Shown here piece by piece: positions 20,660-62,493 of a DNA stretch of 64,000 bases. How positions within the stretch are numbered: position 1 is the stretch's first letter; the number at the start of each line of letters is the position of its first letter. Where the stretch lies: positions 186,001 through 250,000 of the forward strand of contig JAPETS010000016.1 in assembly GCA_026023565.1 (NCBI GenBank), written 5' to 3'. The notes beneath the pieces were generated by a model. That model was not told the origin of the DNA. It saw nothing but the letters and a program-made list of their open reading frames with translations, and searched no databases. Origin of the DNA: Cirrosporium novae-zelandiae. Its lineage: Eukaryota. A program made the translations under genes and the position numbers.

Positions 20660-22847
20660 TTACATACTCTGAAAATAATCCCTTCGGTCACGGCCATAGC
20701 TTCCACTCACGCTTACTTCACCCTTCTTTCCATCTTCCTCCTCTCCTACCACTAATACATCAGGAACATCTCGAACGTCCACACTCTCTCCCGTATTGAG
20801 ATCAACCACTCGAACAGCATCGATTCTCAAGGGACCTTTAGATAGGGGAAGGAATGTTAAGGCCGTCACGTGGCAACTTGAGGGGTATAATGGGCTGGGA
20901 GCAATTTGTTAGAAGAGGTAGAAAATATCCATATATCCATATATCATCTGACCGAGACACGATATACGGCCACACGGACACTTTGACAAAAGTAGGATTC
21001 AAAAGAAAATCTATCATTAGCTTACCCGACTTTGACTTCCGGAGTCAAGCACACTAGATCTGCTGGTTCGGCTACCGAATTCCTCTGTACCGCAAATACA
21101 ATATTCTCATCTACGACTGGCTCCGCCAAATCTATGATTTCCTTCTTCCCTCCATCGCTTTTGTTCGATCCCGTTGACTGCTGCTTTGGTCTGTGGAAGC
21201 TCTTGACTTTGATACTACCTTTTTTCCGGTGTGCTATCGGTAGTAGGGCTATCTTCTGTGATTCGGAGGATCGATTCGTGATCGTTACTGTCCATTGGAA
21301 TGGTTGGGCTACAGAGACGGTGGCGCGTGAGGCAAAGGTGATCGTGAGGGCTGTGGATAGATATGGGGAAAAACTGCCGGTGGCTCCTGGTGTGAAGGAG
21401 GCAGAGGCGCGGGTGGAACCGGGGATGAAATGTGTGGAGTCGAAGGATGTGTTGGCGGTGCCGTCCATTGGAGGGGCGGCCGACACTGGGAGGGAGGCTG
21501 GACGATGGGGGCGCTGGAGGGGTTGCGTCGAGAGTGGAAAATTGGGATTGAGTTGGGTGGAAAAGTCCACCGGAGATAGCCAGTGGAGGGTTAATTTTGG
21601 ATGGCAGCTTGGCGTGAGATGGGCGGTACAGGTGAGTGTGAGTGATAGCGTGGAAAGGAGGGAGGGGGATGTCGTGGCATTCGCAGGTATGATTTTGCTG
21701 TTAGCGACTGGAGAGGGAACGAGGCGATAGAGGAAGGTAGTTTCGTCTCGAGTTTGGCATAACAATGGAGGTTTCAAGTCAGGCGTATCGGTAAGGTCGG
21801 TTATCACGCCTGAGGGAAATTGAATTTCAATGGATTCAAGTGTGACGGAGCATCGACCGAAAGGGAGGACTTCAAAGTCCATTGAAGCAACCGTTGTAGG
21901 CCGTGCGGCATAAGTGTTTATTCGAGAATAGCGAACTCTTGCGCTCACAGCAGGGACGATCTTAATTTCTCGTGGGGGGCATGGCCGTATGTGACGGGAC
22001 GATTCTCTTATAGTAGGGCTTGCAGGGAGAACTCTCGATACACGTAAAGCAGACAAACGAGGTTCAGTCCCTTTAAACGCAGGGTCGTTCTTTAAAGCTC
22101 CCAAAATGTTGACGCTTGCTGGTACGAGAGGTTGCATGTACTCGCCCTGTCCAGCTTCGCCTCTGGATACAGGTCCAGGCCCACACGTCCCATATACTCT
22201 GAAAACAACGGCTGGGGGCTGAATCCGTGTGCGAGGACGACCTGTCGTCGTTAGTAGCTCCAAGCAAGATGATAGTTGAAAGAGTCTTGGTCATACTTAA
22301 CAAGGTGTCTACTTTCCATAAAGCGTAGATTAGATGGGTGTGCTTCTCATCTTCGTCGTCGTCATTTCCACGCACGATGACTATTGGCTCCTCAGATCCG
22401 TTGATATCTGTATGGAAAATAACCTCTTTCAGTCTAGGGAGTGGATCCTTTGGCCGTCCATCTCTGTCAAGAACGGGCCTTGGAGGTTGGGCAGGCTGGA
22501 CTTGAACAATTTGAACTTCAACAGTCAAAGTTACCCTGTTCAAAAATGATTTCAAGACATCTTCCTCAACATAGGGCAGCCTAAGGACAACATATACTAA
22601 GAGATGCTCATCTATATTATTGAAATAAGTTACGTGATGGGAGGATTTGCCAGCTTCAAGACTTACCATAGAATAATAACTTCCTTTGAGCTACTGATTG
22701 GAGGAGACCAGCCGCCCCATCTTCAACGTCATCAAGTGAGCTCAAGGCATGTTCAAAATCCAAGTTTTCGCTATCTCCAGGTACGATAACATCCAAATAC
22801 ACATCATCCACAGATATAGCTGCTCTTCGCTGTTCTTGTTCAGACAT
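20660..22847 (-). CDS. TRS65: TRAPPII complex subunit Trs65, multi-exon
   Basis: QRKLLFY/DEHLLVYVVLR, WKVDTLL/RPRTRIQPP, VNILGALKNDP, FQWTVTITNRS, LVCLTPEVKVG, FLPLSKGPLRIDAVRVVDL. Confidence 0.82.
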
Positions 22848-23739
22848 GGTGAAACTGAATTAAATCGCTGGCTGAAAAAGAACATGGGTGTGTTTTAGTG
22901 AAAAAATTACGTGGTGACCGACTCTAGGTAACTTACGTTATAAGACCATGATTCTGTAATTAGGAATTAGACGAAGAAGAACATTAAGCTTATTTCATAG
23001 CCAAAACTCAGAACATTGATGCTTGAAAAGCTGATTGCAACAAGGTTGTTGTGTGCATAATATGCTAGTGGACAAAAGTTAATAAGAAAGGAGTTGAAAT
23101 GTAGATGATAGGCTTTTTGGAAACCTCAGGCAGAAAACTTTATTTGGACTTGGTAGGATGGGCCAATTGACTTTATTAGTTGCAATACTTAGTGGATTCT
23201 GGTTAAAATTTCATTTTACCGGAAGGCCTCTTCAGTGACCGATTGAATATTTAGTCAGTTATCGCCAGTTAATACGCTTAACAATACGGATACGCCTTAC
23301 AATACGGGTACGATATATAATACGGACACGATACATTCATCAATATGTCATTTCTCAATTTCATAGCCTATCAAATATACATCATGCGTAACAAAAAGAA
23401 AAATCCCACCGTAGCACAAATGTCGTAAAATGCCATAACACAGTTGCCAACCCCCCCCTCCCCCCATATCAACCGTGAAAGAACGAGGCAAAATAACATT
23501 GACCCACCGAAATATAACCGACCCTGTAAAACATGCCGCAAAGCGAAGGGTATTGAATCACAGATATTCATAGCATGCCTGCTCCTGGAATAGCCAATTT
23601 TCCAACTCGTTTTTGGTTTTTTATTTCGCACTCATAAGAATACAGCAGGATGACGAGTCTCATCCTAGTCACTGCCAATACCATGTCCTTCATTCTCGTT
23701 CTTAAAGAGTAATGAAAATATTAGATGGCCTAGTCGAAT

Positions 23740-26700
23740 CTATGCCGCAACCAAGGCTTCTTTGAGTGGACGATCAGCCTGGTTCATTATTTCATAAGGA
23801 GCGCGTTTGACAATTCCTCCAGCAACCGGAAGCTTTGTTGGGACACCCATGAGGTAAGCATCAACCTCACGAGCAGCTTGACGGCCTTCATTGATTCCCC
23901 TATTCAGAATATATTAATATCATTAGTTATAAATGGGTTAGGAGACTTGTTCTTACCATACGATTAGTGACTGACCACGACGGCAATCACCAGCGGCAAA
24001 AACTCCAGCGATATTCGTCTTGTAATGACCAGGAGGAGTCTTGATGTTCTTTCTGGCATCCTTTTCGATATCTGTGCCGAGCAACCGATCCTCAGGACCC
24101 AAGAAACCCATAGAAAGCAATACTAATTCAGCGGGGAAGAACTCATCACTGCCTTCAATAGGTTTCATTTCCCAGCCACCACCAGCATTCTTCGTCCATT
24201 CAACGCGATGGATGTTGATACCTGTGACGTGACCATCTTCACCTACGAATTCTTTGGACATGACACAGTATTCTCTAGGGTCTCTTCCCATATGAGCCTT
24301 TACTTCTGAATGGCCATAGTCAATGCGATAGATACGGGGCCATTGTGGCCATGGGTTATCTCGAGCACGCTCCGGTGGTGGCTGAGGTAGCAGCTCAAAG
24401 TTGATGACACTCTTCGCACCATGACGGACTGAGGTACCGATACAATCGTTTCCGGTATCACCTCCACCAATGACAATAACATTTTTGCCTTTGGCAGAGA
24501 TATATTCTCCATCCGAAAGCCCAGAGTCAAGGAGAGACTTGGTGTTACGGTGGAGGAACTGCATTGCGAAATGGATACCTTCAAGGTTGCGGCCTGGGAT
24601 CGGAAGGTCTCTAGCAACCGTGGCACCTGTGGCGATGACAACGGAATCAAAGTCCTTGCGAAGAGAATCGAGAGAAACGTCACTATCTGGGCCAACGGAA
24701 ACGCCAGTAACAAAATTGACGCCCTCTGCTGCTATGAAATCTACCCGGCGTTGAACGACCTTCTTATCGAGTTTCATATTGGGGATGCCGTACATCAATA
24801 GGCCACCAACACGATCTGCACGTTCATAGACAGTGACTGAGTGGCCAGCACGGTTGAGTTGATCGGCAGCAGCCATTCCAGCTGGGCCCGATCCAATGAC
24901 AGCTACCGTCTTTCCTGTTCGGACTTGGGGTGGATTTGGAATCATCCAACCCATTTCAAAGCCCCTGTCAATGATTGCGCATTCGATAGACTTGATACCA
25001 ACCGGATCTTCATTGATCCCAAGTGTGCAGGCTCCCTCACAAGGAGCAGGGCATACTCGGCCGGTGAATTCGGGAAAGTTATTGGTCATGAGAAGTCGAT
25101 TTAAGGCATCTTGCCATTGGTTCTGGAACACAAGTTCATTCCACTTTGGAATGATATTAGAAATCGGGCAACCAGTATCAGATTGGCAGAAAGGAACACC
25201 ACAGTCCATGCATCGGGCTGATTGGTATTTGAGCTCATCTTCATTGAGACGTTGAGAGAGCTCAGCCCAATCACGAGTTCGTGTTCTGGGGTTTCGATAC
25301 TTCTCACTGCGGCGTTGATATTTCATGAATCCCTTTGTCTTGTCGAGTACGAGGGTAGTACGTTTCTTTTCGGCCTTGGCATCTCCGACACTTTCCTCAA
25401 TGTCTAGTAAATCACTTTTCTTTTCCTTGCCTCCGTTTTTAGTCTCGTGCTTCTTGGACTCCTCGTGAAGTTTTCTGACGGCATTTCCTGGAAGCAGTGG
25501 AAGGGAGTACTCTGCTCTCTTAGCAGCCTCGGCTTTCTTGGCCTCCTCTTCCATGATGCGCTTGTAGTCAGTTGGCAAGACCTTGACAAAACGAGGTAAG
25601 GCATGATTGAAATCAACCAGTATACGTGCTGCAAGCTCTGATCCTGTATAATGGTGATGATCCTCAATTAAACCCCGAACAAAAGCAATCTCAGCAGGAT
25701 CCTCGATTCCAGAAACTTGCACCATCTCCATGTTTATTTTGCTCTCAAAGTCTTGGTTCATATCAAGGACATAAGCAATACCCCCGGACATACCAGCGGC
25801 AAAATTACGGCCAGTGCTACCGAGAACGACAACCCGACCGCCGGTCATGTATTCACATCCATGGTCACCGACGCCTTCGACTACGGCAGTGGCACCAGAA
25901 TTTCGAACCGCAAATCGTTCTGCGGCTACGCCTCTGAAGTAGCAAGTGCCTGAAGTTGCACCATAAAGACAAACATTGCCGATAAGCATGTTTTCTTCCG
26001 CTTTAAACACGGCAAGACGTGGTGGGTAGACAATTAGACGTCCGCCAGAAAGACCCTTCCCGACATAATCATTGGCATCGCCTTCAAGCTCAAGAGTAAT
26101 ACCCGGAGCAAGGTATGCACCAAAAGACTGTCCAGCAGAACCTTTAATATATGCATGAATAGTATCTTTGGGTAATCCCGCTTCACCGTACCGTCGACTG
26201 ACTTCATAGGAGAGTGTGGCACCCATAGCCCGATCAGTGTTGATAATATCACACTCAATACGGCTGGGTCGGCCTTTCTCAAGTGCTTGCTCGGATTCCA
26301 TAATGAGCTTATTATCTAGTCGTTTATAAATGTCGTGGTCTTGTTTACGAACATTGAAGGTGGCAACACCCGGACGTAACGTGTGAGCAGGAGTCAAGAT
26401 CAAAGAGAGGTCGAGATTCTCCGTCTTAAGAGTCCGAAGGTTGTCGCGAACGCGGAGACATTCGGCATGGCCGACCATCTCGTTGATGTTACGGAATCCA
26501 AGCTTCGCCATGATAGCTCTCATCTCATTGGCAATGTAATAGAAGAAATTGATGACATGTTCAGGTGTTCCTTCGAATTTCTTCCGTAATTCTGGATCTT
26601 GAGTAGCAATACCAACTGGGCAAGTGTTTAAATGGCAATTTTCGACGACAAGGCGGTTGGCGAGTTGGAATTGGCCTCCACTGACCTCAATTGCCCTGAA

Positions 26701-29700
26701 TTCCCCTGGATCCACATCCGTAATAGTAAAAGGGCGAGCATCATGATTGTTATATGTCTTGTTAAAATTCATTCTCTTCCGGGGCATAAGTAGATGGTGC
26801 TGGAATTTGGCTGAACCCTTGCCAAGGTAGATAATGTACGCTGTGCTAAGAGGAGCACCGGGAAACGAAGGTCTTGGCACTCCTTCATCAACTCCTGTGA
26901 CAGAAATGCCACAACTCAAAGCCAGTTCCTTCAGGTCAGTTACAATCTTTTTATGCTGTTCAGTCATCTGGATAAACCGATAGGTATTATGAGACTTGAC
27001 GTAGGTACCATCACTATCAATTAGACCGGCAATGACAGCAAGGCGTGAGTCCTCATCAGCCTGCATATATGCCGCAGGAATCCCATGGCTTTTGTTTTCA
27101 AGAACCCCAAGGTTCCGGAGACCATCTAGGACAGGATTTGCCCAGTAGCCCTCTCCATGCTGAGGGCACACTATCTTGTATTCATAGACATCAACATTTT
27201 GTGCATACCCATTCCTCAGAACCGTACCAGCTGGATATATTAGACGTTCAGACATTTGGAGGGCGCGAGCACCTGGTGGCCTGTTGCTATTAAGTCGATT
27301 AAGGTATGAATGCAACCAGACGGCAACCTCGCGATCAGAGCTGGAAATCCCAGTATTACCAGCATAGCCGTCACCAAGCCATAACCCCAAGAAATATGGA
27401 TCAACCAGGAGAGAGCGCTGTGGAGAGATTATAGTAGGGTTGAAGGCAGGCTTTGCGCGATAGAGCTTTATATGCGTGCGTTTGACCTCCTTACTGCACA
27501 TTTTCTCGTACTCCTCAACAGTCATCCTATATTCGTCCCCGTTACGAACAATGAAGGGATCAATGAGATAGTGATGGTCTCCAAGGAGAATTGAATGTGC
27601 AAGTTGAGCTTGCTCAGCTGTTTTGAAAGTGCGGAAAACTTTACGAAAGCCACTACATTGACAATCGGTGTTCAGGGATGCCTGAACAGCAGCAAAGCGG
27701 TTCTCGGCTGGAATTCCCATGTCCAATGATGAAGAATCAACGAAGGAAGTATCTAGCATGGAAGTGTCAATCAAAGATGTATTCGGAGAAGTAGAATCAT
27801 CTAGGATATCCTGAACCGCGGCCGCGATCTTCGGACTAGCAGGGGGAGAACTTGGCAGCACTGGTGAAGAAGGACGCCAAAGACCAGGCTGAGAACTTGA
27901 ACTTGGCAACTTCAAGTCCACAAAAGGCCTTGGTAGATCAATATCGAAGACTTCGGTTGTAGTATCAGCACCGTCAATGTTGATAGAATCGAGTTCCTCG
28001 ATCTGGCTGCCTAGAGTAGGCATCTGCTCTAGATAACGATCCATAGCGGCGTGCATAGCCTCTCGAACCAACCCAGGCGCGTTAGCAAGCTCTCGATCAG
28101 CAGTAACCCTAAGATATTCATCGATACGATCTGAATAATCCAGGTGACCACGGTGATAATGCTGGTCAAGGATAGTCTCGATGTGGCTGTGAACAGCCTC
28201 ATAATCAGGATGATCGTCACCATCAACAAGATCATGATAGAACGAGTCACTTAGCATGTCCAAGTGAAGGTCAATTGCTTCTCTCATTGTGTGCTTTCGG
28301 TCACACTGGGTAAGCCAGGTGACACTGTTCCGGCTCAGTGATGGTTGTACGCCGGCGGCGATAAGTGTAAGTTGATGATCTGGAGTACACTTGAAAGATA
28401 CACTTTGACGGGAATCAAATTCCTGATATTTAATCTCCTTCAAATTCCCAGTCTCCGGTGGAGAAACACCAATGCAAATTACAGGATGGTCGGCCGCATT
28501 ATAAAGGATATCGCCGATGTTGATATCTGCAACAGACTTAACACCAATACTCGTGCGTACAGGCGTGCCTGAACTTAAACACTTCCTCATCATGATGCAG
28601 CCCATGGCAATCAACGGAGTGGTCGCGAAGCCCCACTCCTCAGCTCCGAGTAGGCATGCAATAGCAACATCACGGCCGGTTCGAATCTGTCCATCCGTCT
28701 GTACAACAACACGTCCTCGAAGATCGTTTAAAACAAGAGTCTGGTGGGTTTCGGCAAGACCTAGCTCCCAAGGGAGGCCGGCGTACTTGATACCGGTCCA
28801 TCGAGATGCGCCAGTACCTCCATCATGACCAGAAATCAATATGTGATCAGCTTTGGCTTTTGCAACACCAGAGGCAACAATGCCAACACCAGTCTCGGAT
28901 ACAAGTTTGACAGATACACGAGCCCGAGGATTAGAGCACTTGAGGTCATAAATGAGTTGCTTTAAATCTTCAATGGAATAGATGTCGTGGTGGGGAGGGG
29001 GGGAGATGAGACCAACACCCGGAGTGGAATGTCGGGTATGAGCAATTGGTCCAGACACCTTATGCCCTGGAAGCTCTCCACCTTCGCCTGGCTTAGCCCC
29101 CTGTGCCATCTTGATTTGAAGTTCATCTGCATCTGCAAGATAGTTTGAAGTAACACCAAAGCGACCAGACGCAATTTGTTTGATCGAGGAACGCATTGTG
29201 TCACCATTGTCTAGGATAGCACTTCGTTCTGAGTCTTCACCCCCTTCTCCAGTGTTTGATTTTCCACCCAGCCTGTTCATTGCTAAAGCGAGAGTTGAAT
29301 GTGATTCCATTGAGATAGAACCATAGGACATAGCACCGGTTACGAACCGACGAACAATTTCTGTCCAGGGTTCAACTTGCTCGATGGGGACAGGCGTCGC
29401 CCTGTCAAAATCAAAGTCAAGCAGACCTCGAAGAGTACAGTCTTTGATTCGCTCATATTCAACGAGAGAATAAGCCTCGTATGATTTGTCATTTTTCGTT
29501 CGAACTGCGTCTTGGATGTTGGCAATGGCCGCTGGGTCATTGATGTGTGGTTCACCACCATCCCGCCAATGGTATTCTCCTGTCTCCGCAAGGCCTGGAA
29601 CTTCCCAAATTTTCCTTGATGGGAAGCCATTCTCATGGAATGCTAAGGCATCTTGGGCAATTAGTTCGAAAGTCAAACCTCGAACACGGGTAGCAGTTCC

Positions 29701-32264
29701 GGTAAAACATCTATCAACAACACTGTTGTCTACACCAAGTGCTTCGAAGATTTGCGCTCCCTTGTAGCTTTGCAAGGTCGAGATACCCATCTTGCTCATG
29801 ACTTTCAAGATCCCGCCATCGCAAGAGTACTTATAATTCTGGATAACTTGTTCGTCAGATAAACGCTTTCTAATGAGTTTTTCACGATTCATCTTGAGGA
29901 TACACTCCATGGCCAGGTATGGGCAAATACCATCTGCGCCATAGCCTAGAAGAACACACATATGGTGCACTTCTCGAGCTTCGCCAGTTTCGACGATCAA
30001 TGCAGCAAGCGATCGCCATTTATTACGAACCATGTGGTGATGAACCAGGCCAGTGGCGAGGAGAGCAGAAACAGGAACACGATCAGCACAAATTGCACGA
30101 TCAGAGAGTACGAGAATCTTATCGCCTGCTTCAATACCGGCTGTTACCTCATCGCATATCCGATCGAGGGCATTCATGTACCCGTCAATGCCTTCAGATT
30201 TAGGGAATGTGATATCAATGATCTTTACAGCCCAGTCAGAGTACAAAGAGGAGACATTAATCAGAGCATTGAACTCGTCAATAGCAAGTATTGGGGAGGG
30301 TAACAGTAGACGGTTGCATTGCGAAGGGTCCATCTCGAGTAGATTTCCTTGAGGACCGACATAGCACTCCAGAGACATGACAATGGCTTCTCGAATAGGG
30401 TCAATTGGTGGGTTTGTCACCTGGGCGAAAAGCTGTCTAAAATATTCATAGAGCAATCTCGGTTGTTGGGCTAAACAGGCTAGAGGAGCATCATTACCCA
30501 TAGAACCTAACGCCTCCTTTGAGTCTGCGGCCATTGGGCCAAGTAGGAGACTGACTTGCTCAAACGAATAACCGAAAGCTTTGAGCAATGGATCTGATTG
30601 GAGGTTGACGTCGTCTAGCTTCCAGGCGAGGTTCATGCCTTGCTCTGTTAGCTGTTGGTAAACCCCTGGGAGAGTGACAAGTTGGTTCATCACCCATGAT
30701 TGGAAAGGATGGCGATGTGCAATGGTTGTTTTGAGCTCAGCATCATCTACAATACGGCCTTCTAGGGTATCAACCAATAGCATCTTTCCAGGCTGTAGGC
30801 GACCTTTTTGGACGACTCGTTCCGGATCAATATGGATCGTGCCAACCTCAGACGCGCATACAATTCTATCGTCATCGGTAACATAGTAACGGCAAGGTCT
30901 CAGTCCATTTCTATCGAGATTTGCGCCACAGTACCTACCATCAGCAAACGTGAAGAGAGCTGGGCCATCCCAAGGTTCCATCTGGCATGCTGCCCATTCA
31001 TAAAATGCGGCTTTTGCTGGATCCATGGCAGTATTTCCTTGCCAAGCCTCTGGGACCAACAGCATAACTGCTTCTGGCAAGGAGAGAACGCCGTTAATAA
31101 CTAAGAGTTCCAAAACGTTATCAAAGGCTGCGGAGTCTGATCCACCATCTTCAATGATGGGATACATTGAGTCTAAATCCTCCCCAAAATATTTTGATTT
31201 CATCACACCTTCACGTGCTCTCATCCAATTTTTATTCCCCCGCAGGGTGTTAATTTCTCCATTATGAGCGGCCCACCGTAACGGTTGTGCACGATCCCAA
31301 CTAGGGAATGTATTGGTAGAGAACCGTGAGTGTACGAGAGCAAAGTGACCCTCATAGTCGGCATTAACGAGATCATAGTAATAATCATAAACCTGTGAAG
31401 GAGACAATTGACCTTTATATACAATGTTCTTGTTGCTTAGGGAGCAAAGGTAGAACCAATTGTGAAGACCAATTTGATGCGTGGCACGTTTTCTAAGGAC
31501 ATATAATTGACGTTCAAAGGCAGTTTCGTCAAAGTTTTCGGGATCGATGGATTCAGGTTTGTTACCATTGCCGTACGCAGAACGCAACACCACAAATGGC
31601 TGCAGGATGATGGGTTCCCGCGATAGGGCGGCAGGGCCTAAAAGAGTAGAATCACGGGGAACTTCTCTCCAGCCAAGCACTCTGAGACCAATCGATGTAG
31701 CAATTTCCCCGAATTTGTCGAGCGAATCTTGAAGGGCTTCGGTATCTGGTTTGAAAAACAAATTTCCAGCCGCATACTGCCCCAGAGGTGGCAATTCTAC
31801 ATCATTCTCCCGTGCAAAATTCTTTACAAAGAACTTGTGGGGGATCGAGGTCATGACACCAGCACCATCGCCATCTCTTGCATCCGATCCAACCGCCCCA
31901 CGATGGGTCATATTACAGAGGAGATTCCGTGCTAGGAATCTTGGTTAGTTTATACTCGAGTAATGGGAGCAAACCATATACTTACCATCTTTAACGATCT
32001 TGTGGCTTACCTTGCCCTTGATATGACTATCACCAATGTCAGTGTTTTGAGATGGGTTTCTGAACCGGAACTTGAGATGACTCACGCAGCGAAACCTACA
32101 CCACAGGCATCTTTCTCATATTCAGGATCATAGAGACCCTGCTTCACCGGGAGGGCTCCAGCCCACGACTTGTTAGCGGGAGTCTCATTATAGTTGTAAA
32201 TATTGACAGGTTCATCCTCAGTCTGTTCGGGGCGTGGTCCATAAATGTTCTCCAAGAGACCCAT
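23740..32264 (-). CDS. GLT1: NADH-dependent glutamate synthase (fused alpha/beta), 4 exons (32264-32086, 32026-31986, ~31932-23957, ~23899-23740); precursor contains an intein
   Basis: EKDACGVGF (Ntn Cys), HRGA, HSRFSTNT, QGAKPGEGG, GCIMMRK..CHLNTC, RCMDCGVPFC, GSGPAG, GGGDTG, GDCRRGQSLIVW/GINEGRQAA. Confidence 0.99.
26638..28581 (-). mobile_element. GLT1 intein (648 aa) with LAGLIDADG homing endonuclease
   Basis: In-frame 1944-nt insert between ..GCIMMRK and CHLNTCPVG. Block A CLSSGT, block B FKCTPDHQL, block C PYFLGLWLGDG (27367-27399), block E IAGLIDSDG (27007-27033), block H DLKELALSCGI, block G LANRLVVEN/C. Confidence 0.97.
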
Positions 32265-34564
32265 CCTACGGTCAGAAGCCGAAGGAAGGATACTTGAGGA
32301 GAGATTTCGAAAGCTGTTAAACAAGTTTGATTTCGGTTGCAAACGCGATGGCTCGCTGAATTTTCTTTGTTGGATTTTTGAGTCGGAGAGTAATTTTCTG
32401 GAAATTGGTCAATTGTGTGGGGGGGTTTTTTTTTCAGTGGGAAGTAGAAAGGAAAAAGAGAGGAGAAGATCAGAAGCAAGCGGCAAAGAAAAAGACGTTT
32501 CGGTAGTGTAAAGTCTGGTTCGATAGGTGGGGAGGAGAGAGTCTACACAGTACTGGATACTGGGAAATTCAATGATTAGGAATTTAGTAAATGCTCTGAT
32601 AAGAGAGGCCGCCCAATCATAGTGGGGGCTTTGTTATTTTACATTTCCGCTTTTTCCAATCCACCCACGCTGAGTGACTGGAATAACGAACGGATCATAG
32701 ATGGGCCTTTTTCTTGACCAAAATAACCTCTTCCCCGTGTCAGTCATACATCGTTTTAACTTTCGCTGTTTTCCCTTCCTTTGACCCCATACATAGTAAT
32801 CATCTGGTACAAAATAAATACTTGTAATTAAATCATTCAGCTCCCATTCGGGCGGATGCGGCCTTGACTCTGGAAATCATCGGCAAATGTCGGAGGGAGG
32901 AAAGGTGGGAAGGCCTCCCCAAGGACCCAAGGACCCAAGGACTCAAGGACTGAAGGACTGAAGGGATCCCTGAGTGCCTGAGTCCCTGGGTTGTCGGGTT
33001 TTACGGGTTTCGAGATCTTCCCCACGCTTTAATGAACTGCGATTTCGGATTCAGACCTTGTTAAGGCCCGTGAAACCCGTAAGACCCACTCATGGCGCTG
33101 TTAGCTCACCAGCTCCGCGGGTTTCTACTACGCACACCGTACACTAATTGGAAACCTTGAAATCTAGGAATCCAAGACCCTATTCCCCCGATGTCGGATG
33201 GATTGTTCATGTATTTCCAATACCTCAATACCAAAAGGCCACGAAGACTTTTTTTTTTCATCAGACTCCACTTGACAAAAACTAATCATCATCTGCGCCC
33301 TCCTCTCGCCCTTTTCAGGTTGCATCTAAGTTACTGAGTATCACAAATTGATAGGTATTCCTTTACTGAAACGGGGTTAATGTTCCCCATATTGATTGCC
33401 TTATCCACCAAACCTATTTTGGAACCCTCTGCAGTAAGTTTCTTCTAATCGGCCTTGCAAAATTGAAATAAAATCCAATTAGGCTATAAAATTCATCTTT
33501 ATTTTCCATCGCCCTCCCTCACCATTTCCAGTCGAAGGCCATGTCAAAACTACATATAGTTTTCGCCAGCTTATTATGACGATCTTAAGAAAGCTTGTGC
33601 TGATGCTTCTCCGCAACCGTCCAAGCCCTTTGCATATTCTGTCCATCAAATACATTTCACTAGGTGATTGACAATATGCTCGAATATTAATTGTAGAGGA
33701 GGGTCGGCAAAGTTTCTGGGAACGTGGAGGGGAAAGATAAAATCGATCAAAAGGAAATCCATTCATTGAAATATGCTTTAGAAAGAACTGGAGAAAGTGT
33801 TTGATCTACAAGCACACCATCCATGCAATCCTCATAGGCGAACCCTGGAGGTCAATTACATCATCATTATCACCATCCTGTACCTTTGCGATAAGAAGGT
33901 GAGAAGGTACGGAAGGACAAGGCACAGAAACACAGAAAGTAGCTTCTGCCCTATCCCTGTGTAGTATAATCTCATGTCCTTTGTATATCATGTACTTTGA
34001 TGGGTAGAGAGAAAGCGACCGGATCCAGAAGAACCGAACAGTGATCCTCGGGAGGTCTTCAAACAAAATCAGGTTATAATTCAAATCAATTTTCATTCAA
34101 AGCTGATTTTGCTAGAAGGCCTCCCGAGATTCTTCTCTGATCCTACTTTTTGGGTGTAGAGTTGAGGTCTGATCTCTTTCATTTCTACTTCCAAAGTACC
34201 CATAGAAAAATAGAGATAGGTTTTTTGCCATCTATGTTTATTTCATTACTTTCTCCCTCTAATCGAATACGTTCAATAACGGTACAAAAGTATGAAGGAT
34301 CTAACGACTCACGCTGTCATGCATGTTTATTCGATCAATACACAATAACGCAATTCTAAGGAATTCGACGCGAACTGCCAAACAAGACCACAATTGCTGG
34401 GATGGGTTTATGTGTGCCTTGTGAGTTCCTGGGCGTCGTGATTTTGGTCTCGGCATTGCCGTTTAGATTTTGGTGTGTCTGGGCAAGCCTGTACCTTGCA
34501 TCTTATTCGTGGTTGGAACGGAATTTCTGGGCGCCGAGGTGGAGATAGCAAAGCCGCCCAGCGC

Positions 34565-49890: not shown

Positions 49891-51338
49891 TTATATTTTC
49901 CAACTATATGTGATTATGGGTTAGTTTCTTGGATTGGGGTTGATGGGTTGGGGTTATCAGAGGACAAGGCTTACCTCCAAGGATGTTCCTCGTCACCGTA
50001 TTGGATTGCGTCAATCCAATTCTTCATTCTCATTGCAATCTCCCCGGCTTCTTCTCCATCCTTTAATCCACAGTTGACCAGTTTACCGTTCCAGCTGATA
50101 TTCCTAACCGGGCTGACGGTAGCAGCAGTTCCAGCACCGAATGCTTCAATCAAACGTCCTTCCTTTGCGGCCTCGGAAACTTCACTCATGGTGTACTTGC
50201 GTTCGATAATCTCCCATCCTTCGGGTGCGAGACGTTCTCTGGCAAGTCCAAGGACGGAAAGACGTGTCACACCCTCCAGGATGGTGCCGTCCAGTGGTGC
50301 TGTTAGTAATTGCTTCTTGCCAGTCTTCTTGTCCTTGATCGCAACAAAGAAATTCATGGTTCCAACTTCTGTAACATAGCCTTCTTCACCAAACAGCCAC
50401 AGGTTCTGGTGGAAGCCCCGTTTTGCAGCCTCGATTTGAGGAACCACGCAAGGGGCATAGTTGGCTCCAAGTTTCTTGTCGCCCACACCACCGGGCCAGG
50501 CTCGTACGGCGGAGGTTGTGGCTTCGAGAGAGACAGCTTTGAAACCGGTGGGATAATAAGGACCAACGGGAGAGGCGATAAGGTAGAGGAGGGCGGAACC
50601 AGAAGGACCAACACCGAGGGTCCGTTGTGTTCCAATCATGGTCGGACGGAGGTAGAGTGAGTAACCGTGGGTTCTGGAGTGGGTGATTAGCTACTTCAGG
50701 TATAAAAGTCATCTCGATTGGAACCATACGCAGGGATGAAACGCTCCTCCAGTTTAACAAAACTAGAGATGAGTTTGATGAATTGACTTCCGTCAAAGTT
50801 GGGAAGAGCTATTCTGGCAGTGGATTTGTTCATCCGCTCCATATTCTTGTCCGGTCTAAATAATCTTATACCGCCTTTCTTATCTTTGTATGCTTTCATT
50901 CCCTCAAAGCACTCGAATGCATAATGGAAGACATTTGTAGCAGGATCGAGGCTTAGGTTTTGATATGGTGTTATGCGTGGTGCTAACCATCCTTCCTTTG
51001 CAGTCCATTCTACGGAGAGCATATGATCTATCGCCGCCAGCTCTTAGATAAATGTAGCCGATCCCGGAGGAGGCCTATAGCGCACCTGTGAAATTCCTCC
51101 CGAATACCAGCTCCTGCAAAGGTTTAAGCTCTTTGGGGGATGTTGTCTTTTCTATGGTGAGCTTTGAAGGATCAAGATCTGGAAGATTTGGTGCTGTAGA
51201 GGTTTTAGGAGCGCTGTAATATCGGCGCCCTGATTCGTAGGTGGTACATGCTGTGGTACATGCTGTCCAAAACCCTGGTCTGGTCAATTGAGATGATAAT
51301 TGATGCGGCAACCGCCTGGAAAGAATAGGAGACAACAT
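49891..51338 (-). CDS. BAT1: Branched-chain amino acid aminotransferase, mitochondrial type, multi-exon
   Basis: Presequence, LVFGRNFT/DHML, FHYAFECFEGMKAY, LYLRPTMIG, PLP-Lys motif KKLGANY, EVGTMN, FGAGTAA. Terminal mini-exon ..HPWSWKI*. Confidence 0.95.
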
Positions 51339-60490: not shown

Positions 60491-61512
60491 AGGTTTTGTT
60501 AGGACTTGTCTTCTAGCTATGCTGTAGCCCCCACTTTTGGATACTTGTGTCAAGAGAAGGGCAAGCAAATACCTAGATGCTGATGTTAAGGGACGGGCAA
60601 ACTGATACCTAAATACCTATTAGTCTCGAAGAAGCCACGTTCAAACCACTCCCATTTTTAGCTAACCATGAATCACAGCCTTGGATTAACCTCTGATCAA
60701 AGCACTGATTCCTTGGAAGAATAGACACTATTATTTTTCTGTATTCCTTTTGGGGCTGACTTTGAATTGGGACCGAGAATTGCCATGACGGTGAACTACC
60801 GAAGACACTCTACCTCTCCTATGCTCGTCCTTGTTCACCCTTGAAATCATCCTAGTAATTTCGTCAAACCACCAACCCTAAAATAGTAATACTCCTTCTC
60901 GGCGTATTCCGAGTAACGGTTAATATTTTCGGCAGCCTAGTCCCCATTGGAACCACCATGGCAAATAGTCTTCCACACTCTCATATCCATAGGATATATA
61001 ATAACTTACTCTGTAGTACTTACTAGTAGCCAAAGGCATAGTTTCACTTTCAGGGGTGAAGATGTCTCCAGCTAATACCAAAGGCCCACCCCCTTAACCA
61101 AAGTTGAGTCACCAGCTTACCAGCGGCTCAAGGCGGTTCATCCTTCAGTATATCAATTCTATATCAGCATATCAGAGAGATCGGAGTAGACATAGGTGAT
61201 GTGATAGTGCGCTACCTATCCTTATATGCATTAAGGTTTGAAATCCGGCATATATATTGCTATACGGGCATATAATCCGGGGAAATATGATTCATTCCTT
61301 GTGATGATAGCTCTGACACACTTCCCCAACTCCGTGTCCGCGCTCGCTCACCATGCTTCTATCTTCTATAAATAGTCTTTTCTCTACTCGAATTTCAATT
61401 GAATTCTTCATACTATCCTTCCTCTACTTCTAGATATATATGCCAGAAACTCCTTACCCCCACCAAGCAAACCTTACTCCTAACAACAAAAACACCCCAG
61501 ACTAACCTCACA

Positions 61513-62493
61513 ATGGCCACATCTACGCCCACATCTACACCCCTAAGCGCCCTCTCCTTCTCGCGCCTCACCAAAACCCTAAAAACAACACTCGATCCCA
61601 TCCCAGAAGCCTCGGACCCCTCCATCGCCTTAAAAAACACCACCACCTCACACATGATCTCCGCCACCTGGACCCTCACCTCAGGCTGGTCGGCCCTATC
61701 CCTCCACCCCACAGCCTCCGTATTTCACTACGCGACAACCTATTTCGAAGGTCTAAAATGCTACCGCAGCCCATACGACGGGCACGTGCGCCTCTTCCGC
61801 CCTCTCCTAAACTATCAACGCATGCAGAAATCCGCCGCGCGGGTAGCCCTTCCCGCAGACTTCGAACCGGAAGAATTCTTGAAACTAATCACGGAGCTCG
61901 TTGCCACAGACACGCCGCGATGGCTTCCAAAAACCGGCACGAGAAAGTTCCTGTATATTCGTCCCACGCTGATCGGATCGGGTGCGGGTCTCGGCGTCGA
62001 TGCTCCTAAGGAGGCAACACTCTTCATAATTCTAACCCTAATACCGTAAATAGACCAGCACGCCATTAACACCACCCTAATCCCAACTCCAACTTCAACT
62101 CTCGGAGGACGACCCCAAGAAGACCCCCCCCCCCCACCACCACCACCACAACCCCAAACCGGAATCCGTCTAATAACCAGCTCCCCTAACAGCATCCGCA
62201 CCTAGCCCAACGGTTTCGGCGCCTCAAAACTAGGCGCAAACTACGGTCCCAGCCTATCCACCCAACGCTCCGCCCATCTCTCAGGCTTCGACATCGTGCT
62301 CTAGCTCCTCGGCCCCTCAAACCAAATAACCGAAGCCAGCTCCAGCAATTTCTTCCTCGTCTGGACGTCCGCCCAAACCGGGCAATTGGAACTCGTCACC
62401 GCTCCATTAACTGATGGGGTGATTTTGGATGGGATTACGAGGAGGAGTGTGTTGGAACTTGCGAGGGAGAGGTTAGGGGGGGAGGGAGGTTGA
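61513..62493 (+). pseudogene. Branched-chain aminotransferase-like pseudogene (intronless, 3'-truncated)
   Basis: One frame reads [76 protein letters not shown]. Stops at 62047, 62203, 62302, then TGA at 62491 before the EAFGAGTA region. Confidence 0.9.

Follow-up and report, generated by a model that had tools for sequence, protein, structure and literature searches.

We analysed a 64,000-nucleotide stretch of the Cirrosporium novae-zelandiae genome (assembly GCA_026023565.1, contig JAPETS010000016.1, positions 186,001 to 250,000; hereafter the window, with positions counted from its first letter), in which GLT1, the gene for NADH glutamate synthase, carries a long in-frame insert that reads as an intein. 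GLT1 occupies positions 23740–32264 of the minus strand. Its domains were recognised by Pfam and NCBIfam models, and its spliced coding sequence is identical to database protein P0089, annotated at its source as glutamate synthase [NADH] of C. novae-zelandiae (class Xylobotryomycetes). The gene has three introns of 54–59 bases (32027–32085, 31932–31985 and 23900–23956). The precursor comprises 2784 amino acids, or 2136 when the intein is subtracted, a length like that of intein-less GLT1 relatives (about 2110–2165 amino acids). A first-pass annotation had described a 648-amino-acid in-frame insert between GCIMMRK and CHLNTC without stating the strand, and this description held: positions 26638–28581 of the minus strand contain 648 stop-free codons (probability by chance about 5e-15), in frame inside a 2663-codon open frame of GLT1, and both junction 9-mers quoted in that annotation match the DNA.

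Removal of the insert as an RNA intron and an origin by faulty assembly are both extremely improbable. None of 28 in-frame GT/GC-AG choices within 45 bases of the junctions kept the Cys motif, and the spliceosomal intron reading was rejected on this ground; the real introns of GLT1 are, moreover, only 54–59 bases long. A single contig of run X1, perhaps the source itself, covers the region without difference, and a homologous insert stands at the same site in 26 other proteins. A search for an intron nested inside the intein gave one weak 104-base frame-breaking candidate and none in frame.

The stop-free frame, the junction shared with other GLT1 proteins and the predicted fold identify the insert as a full-length GLT1-a intein. 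Cys1 (28579–28581), the block B residues T66-P-D-H69 (28375–28386), the terminal Asn648 and the +1 Cys, all of them listed in the first-pass annotation, are present in the translation. The N-terminal Hint part (residues 1–92) lies at 28306–28581, and sequence, family alignment and model place the C-terminal Hint part (residues 612–648, ending in Glu647-Asn648) at 26638–26748, both on the minus strand. An AlphaFold model of the intein (predicted local distance difference test score, 78.8) ranked PI-SceI first in Foldseek (E-value 4.8e-15) and aligned with the Prp8 mini-intein 6mx6 with a Z-score of 20.7 and a root-mean-square deviation of 1.6 over 139 residues. In a phmmer search against solved structures, the sole sequence relatives were PI-SceI entries (5 of 5). 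The window intein thus has the bipartite Hint and two-motif LAGLIDADG fold of PI-SceI/VDE, the VMA1 intein (PDB 1lws, 1vde, 1dfa), which differs in host and target; activity has been demonstrated for PI-SceI, whereas the window intein is known from sequence and model.

Two observations weigh against the identification. Profile searches, which the first-pass annotation had suggested for Hint as well as endonuclease families, succeeded in part: LAGLIDADG_3 (5.7e-7) and Hom_end (6.2e-6) were matched in Pfam, but no Hint model was matched at E≤0.1, and the Hint domain is apparent only in the predicted fold. NCBIfam gave no match to the intein. In addition, the penultimate residue is Glu647 and not His, which occupies this position in 11 of the 27 GLT1 inteins; the yeast clusters represented in InBase have Ala. 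Block F is conserved across the GLT1 intein family, but without its Asp/His. A penultimate His and a block F Asp/His are common in inteins, not obligatory. We regard the insert as almost certainly an intein, and the fuller description, in which it is a class 1 intein that carries an endonuclease, sits at the known GLT1-a site and has a history of homing and transfer, as quite likely. The splicing domain appears intact, and self-splicing is predicted from sequence and model.

The N-junction was identical in all 27 intein-bearing GLT1 proteins that retain it. Comparison with the InBase GLT1 inteins, as proposed in the first-pass annotation, gave the same site as in Debaryomyces and Meyerozyma. 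The site was matched through database clusters; the supplement of PMC5784728, in its available part, gives no exteins for GLT inteins. The P0111 cluster contains the Debaryomyces InBase accession XP_002770648, together with an entry called intein-containing glutamate synthase precursor, and the P0113 cluster contains the Meyerozyma accession EDK40360; both have the same junctions as the window and intein lengths as published (607 amino acids in D. hansenii and 553 in M. guilliermondii). According to the accessible parts of the reports, GLT1 inteins have been described in Debaryomyces hansenii, Meyerozyma (Pichia) guilliermondii and Podospora anserina, and also in Phaeosphaeria nodorum (PMC1635734, PMC1508164, PMC5056185), and a 2018 census counted five GLT inteins (PMC5784728). 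These GLTi-a inteins share host gene, junction, full length, blocks and helical insertion with that of the window (PMC1635734, PMC5056185, PMC5784728, as far as available). The window element is a further GLT1-a intein, and both the site and the kind of intein were already known. It is 51% and 44% identical to the Debaryomyces and Meyerozyma cluster representatives, respectively. It differs from the known ones in several respects: its 648 residues end in a penultimate Glu where the known yeast GLT1 inteins have Ala, its silent sites give evidence of an exchange involving Lecanoromycetes-like fungi, and its host class, Xylobotryomycetes, is not among the GLT1 intein hosts found in the available parts of PMC1635734, PMC5056185 and PMC5784728. 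CHS2 inteins (Podospora, Diaporthe; PMC5784728, seen in part) constitute a sister family with the same insertion and 37% identity; they reside in chitin synthase, cluster with inteins of Sel1-repeat and kinesin proteins, and are separated from the GLT1 inteins by a tree split supported at 100/99.

The distribution of the GLT1 intein is as patchy as had been asserted: of the 120 GLT1 proteins that scored best, 105 have no intein at this site, although the query included 52 intein residues and so favoured carriers. The results extend this little-studied intein to many more ascomycete lineages.

The insertion interrupts a C-x5-C-x4-C motif on the minus strand. The first Cys (Cys1185 of the N-extein, 28597–28599), the middle or +1 Cys (26635–26637) and the third Cys (+6, 26620–26622) align to Cys1102, Cys1108 and Cys1113, respectively, of Azospirillum GltS (1EA0), which we take to be the ligands of the [3Fe-4S] cluster. 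By the chemistry of inteins, the +1 Cys would also be the splicing nucleophile. The claim that this nucleophile is itself a cluster ligand stands as regards the alignment; a statement naming the GltS ligands was not found in the literature searched. In its available part, PMC8097209 places the GltS cluster in the electron path to flavin mononucleotide and confirms no more than that. We infer with good reason that glutamate synthase activity depends on prior splicing, which applies equally to all GLT1 inteins, known since 2005–2006.

Between block B and the remainder of the intein lies an insertion of 214 amino acids (residues 93–306; 27664–28305, minus strand) that was absent from the first-pass annotation. 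It is common to the whole family, yeast and CHS2 inteins included, and PI-SceI has its DNA-recognition region at this place. In the AlphaFold model, four predicted helices (residues 99–185) are followed by about 100 low-confidence acidic, Ser/Pro-rich residues (187–287). Comparison of the insertion with 48161 structure chains gave a best Z-score of 6.5 and none of at least 8, which does not by itself establish a new fold. Foldseek found no match for it at E≤0.001, and its Atlas scores (0.77) were too low for use. Cys93, Cys307 and Cys309 flank the insertion and Cys362 lies further on; all four are conserved across GLT1 inteins and might, at a guess, form a metal site.

These features bear on a possible partly domesticated sensor, in which the redox or metal state would gate splicing and thereby control glutamate synthase maturation. 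Such a gate was considered because the +1 Cys would be both nucleophile and cluster ligand and because the four conserved Cys may bind metal. The insertion is under purifying selection (ratio of nonsynonymous to synonymous substitution rates [dN/dS], 0.32), and PMC5056185, in its available part, proposed a regulatory role for GLT1 inteins. However, the 105 empty proteins among the 120 closest indicate that most hosts manage without the intein, and these cysteines, like the insert, recur in the CHS2 and Sel1 inteins and in non-splicing Lipomyces relatives; a role in folding or DNA recognition is therefore more likely, and we consider a sensor very improbable.

The two-motif LAGLIDADG endonuclease domain (residues 391–611; 26749–27411, minus strand; with R601/K602 near its end) keeps the acidic residues of both helices, as the first-pass annotation had pointed out. 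D404 (LGLWLGDG, 27370–27372) and D524 (AGLIDSDG, 27010–27012) align by phmmer to D218 and D326 of PI-SceI, both of which have catalytic roles. D404 is retained in 24 of the 27 GLT1 inteins, and D524 and K497 (27091–27093) in all 27. K497 is the Lys of the NKSHGIP motif noticed earlier; in the phmmer alignment, to which this placement is confined, PI-SceI K301 pairs with H499, two residues downstream of the invariant K497. The first catalytic Asp is replaced by Val, Asn or Glu in P0090, P0096 (L002–L004) and P0113, which offer natural decayed controls. At 107 conserved endonuclease columns, the window copy shows 3 departures and the Meyerozyma-type P0113 shows 20. No acceleration was seen on the endonuclease branch of the window copy, whose terminal rate ratio is 0.87 where the median is 1.13, and dN/dS against L001 was 0.20 for the endonuclease and 0.23 for the splicing domain. 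The endonuclease looks intact; whether it can still cut today we judge to be finely balanced. The copy, being apparently undamaged, is suited to splicing and cleavage tests.

Past mobility was assessed from genealogies, silent sites and the flanks of the insertion. In a quick host tree of the 26 carriers and 24 named, hand-picked proteins of the 105 empty ones, built with no shuffled control, intein presence changed 12 times. The window GLT1 was sister to that of Xylona, the nearest named host, and a survey of relatives for empty alleles, as suggested earlier, found Xylona empty. Carrier P0091 was sister to the empty Pleopsidium (Lecanoromycetes). L001, from an Acarosporaceae-like fungus, corresponds to P0091 by intein length and start. 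At fourfold-degenerate sites, 119/213 intein positions of the window and 234/707 of its extein positions agreed with L001 (saturation in the exteins about 0.28; p 3.5e-9); the corresponding figures against L003 were 91/188 and 214/707 (p 5.9e-6). In the controls L005 and L006 the intein showed no excess, but both lie close to saturation and hence are little informative. A candidate co-conversion tract of 50 extein codons lies directly downstream of the intein (26488–26637, minus strand): codon identity to L001 was 480/1205 in extein further away and 28/43 in the tract (p 0.0009, one-sided; one of four flank windows tested), a level matched by none of 28 distant windows. An intein tree constrained to the strong branches of the host tree was rejected by the approximately unbiased (AU) test (p 0.035), and the misplacement of P0093 in the intein tree gave p 0.009.

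Several results weaken this case. L001 and L003 also agree more with each other in the intein (158/234) than in the extein (388/799); with L003 as reference the flank signal did not reach significance (p 0.08), and no raised identity was seen in the upstream flank. A faster tree search gave an AU p of 0.052, and the P0093 group was chosen after the trees had been inspected. A five-taxon likelihood test that compared proportional with free branch lengths did not reject a single, uniformly slower rate for the intein (p 0.08–0.10). The G+C content at synonymous third positions (GC3s) was equal in intein (0.407) and exteins (0.400 and 0.413), which argues against a recent arrival in this lineage, and a fourfold-site distance (d4) of 0.7 implies that any transfer is old. 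Codon usage of the intein differed from that of the gene by chi-square (p 0.003 for the whole gene, 0.07 against 800 codons), which we do not read as recent transfer.

Much of this is also what long vertical descent of a true intein with many losses would predict, its endonuclease being kept for folding or last used long ago and homing having ceased. The matching GC3s, the proportional-branch model that was not rejected and the borderline AU results agree with such a history, as do the 3 of 27 relatives with an altered catalytic residue (V, N, E); run X1 contains no intein-less contig of this organism, although contigs lose rare variants, and the GLT1 pieces in runs X2 and X3 all come from other organisms. 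Vertical descent nevertheless requires silent sites in the intein to have evolved 2–5 times more slowly than those of a conserved host gene while its protein evolved faster: nucleotide identity is 0.727 at an amino acid identity of 0.681 in the intein, and 0.745 at 0.873 in the extein. The downstream flank signal and an endonuclease without decay also speak against it, and we hold purely vertical descent to be unlikely. Lateral homing, old and across fungal classes, is probably part of the history of this intein. The earlier suggestion of a mobile element is accordingly supported for the past by genealogy, fourfold sites and flank, and not by the likelihood test. Should the silent-site signal be upheld, a nuclear intein has moved between fungal classes, and the flank tract is the footprint of homing.

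The following cycle is consistent with these data. The 2784-amino-acid precursor would be translated whole; Cys1, assisted by the block B His, would form a thioester, the +1 Cys would take over the N-extein and Asn648 would cyclise, as in canonical inteins. The exteins would join into the 2136-amino-acid enzyme, whose C-x5-C-x4-C loop could then bind [3Fe-4S], and the freed 648-amino-acid PI-SceI-like endonuclease would cut intein-less GLT1 alleles at the junction. Repair would copy the intein and some downstream flank into the cut allele, and the element may persist by homing, being lost and now and then passing from one fungal lineage to another. Introns near the insertion site could block homing. 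An intron-like break was seen a few bases past the +1 Cys in L005, L006 and L007, and record 5 of run X2, from a relative without the intein, is longer by about 50 letters at the site (window 26637/28586).

The family extends beyond GLT1. Nine extein-free Lipomyces proteins (P0004–P0006, P0008, P0009, P0013, P0014, P0311 and P0312) formed one clade (100/100) nested among the GLT1 inteins near that of the window (92/91). The long-branch rows P0321 and P0322 were dropped from the careful intein tree. The seven Lipomyces proteins compared were 50–56% identical to the window intein and 38–48% to yeast GLT1 inteins. Position 1 is Gly in 7 of the 9, and both nuclease Asp are kept in all 9. The copies are dispersed: the three of L. 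chichibuensis lie on three contigs, and in one L. tetrasporus assembly three were found whose accessions are far apart. The C-terminal end of P0009 resembles a remnant of the GLT1 C-extein. Most of the helical insertion is missing from P0014 and P0311. A single clade of Lipomyces and CUG-yeast inteins was not rejected (AU p 0.131), and transfer into Lipomyces is therefore suggested, not shown.

The HO/WHO endonucleases provide a precedent for extein-free, intein-derived genes of this kind; in the available parts of PMC7282813 and bioRxiv 10.64898/2026.08.13.744650 they are linked to VDE, with a zinc finger and without motif G. The Lipomyces copies, in contrast, are nested among GLT1 inteins, have no zinc-finger tail that we could see and often keep the C-terminal block. 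We found no mention of them in the available parts of those two sources or among the papers listed by literature searches, which covered few subscription journals. Our tentative scenario, a little short of an even chance, is that the GLT1 intein lineage homed across fungal classes, reached Lipomyces, left the host gene, mostly lost Cys1 and spread as stand-alone endonuclease genes, with an origin independent of HO/WHO, while its sister clade took up residence in chitin synthase, in a protein with Sel1 repeats and in a kinesin. The Lipomyces copies could reveal a second way for an intein to become a free-standing nuclease and bear on the origin of HO, a larger prize that lies outside the window. 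For the window intein itself, an HO/WHO-type element was rejected, as it is embedded in GLT1 exteins.

Other relatives were observed in passing. P0316 and P0318 are full-length CHS2-clade inteins within a fungal Sel1-repeat protein, presumably similar to the chitin synthase activator Chs4/Skt5. In P0326, P0458 and P0459, a CHS2-clade intein continues into a kinesin motor domain that we assume to be BimC-like, the predicted protein being without its N-terminal part. Neither host appears in the table of PMC5784728, as far as available. Distant inteins (about 30% identity) were found at two sites in Hsp70-like genes (L008:573-1622, L009:8001-9056 and L010:2305-3234), on contigs with 25–29% GC that are perhaps from giant viruses. 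P0321, P0322, P0327, P0330, P0334, P0344 and P0364 are divergent, apparently extein-free family members, mostly without Cys1 or the terminal Asn.

The GLT1 precursor appears to need a second processing step besides intein removal. The Cys54 codon (32103–32105, minus strand) is preceded by a 53-residue leader, and glutamate synthases need an exposed N-terminal Cys. An Rfam search of positions 22000–34000 gave no matches. The neighbours of GLT1 are ordinary housekeeping genes, with a Pfam match in 12 of the 15 open frames scanned. Two class IV aminotransferase frames lie about 11 kb apart on opposite strands (49974–50690, minus; 61372–62046, plus), and short imperfect tandem repeats of about 9 bases occur at 32915–32990, upstream of GLT1.

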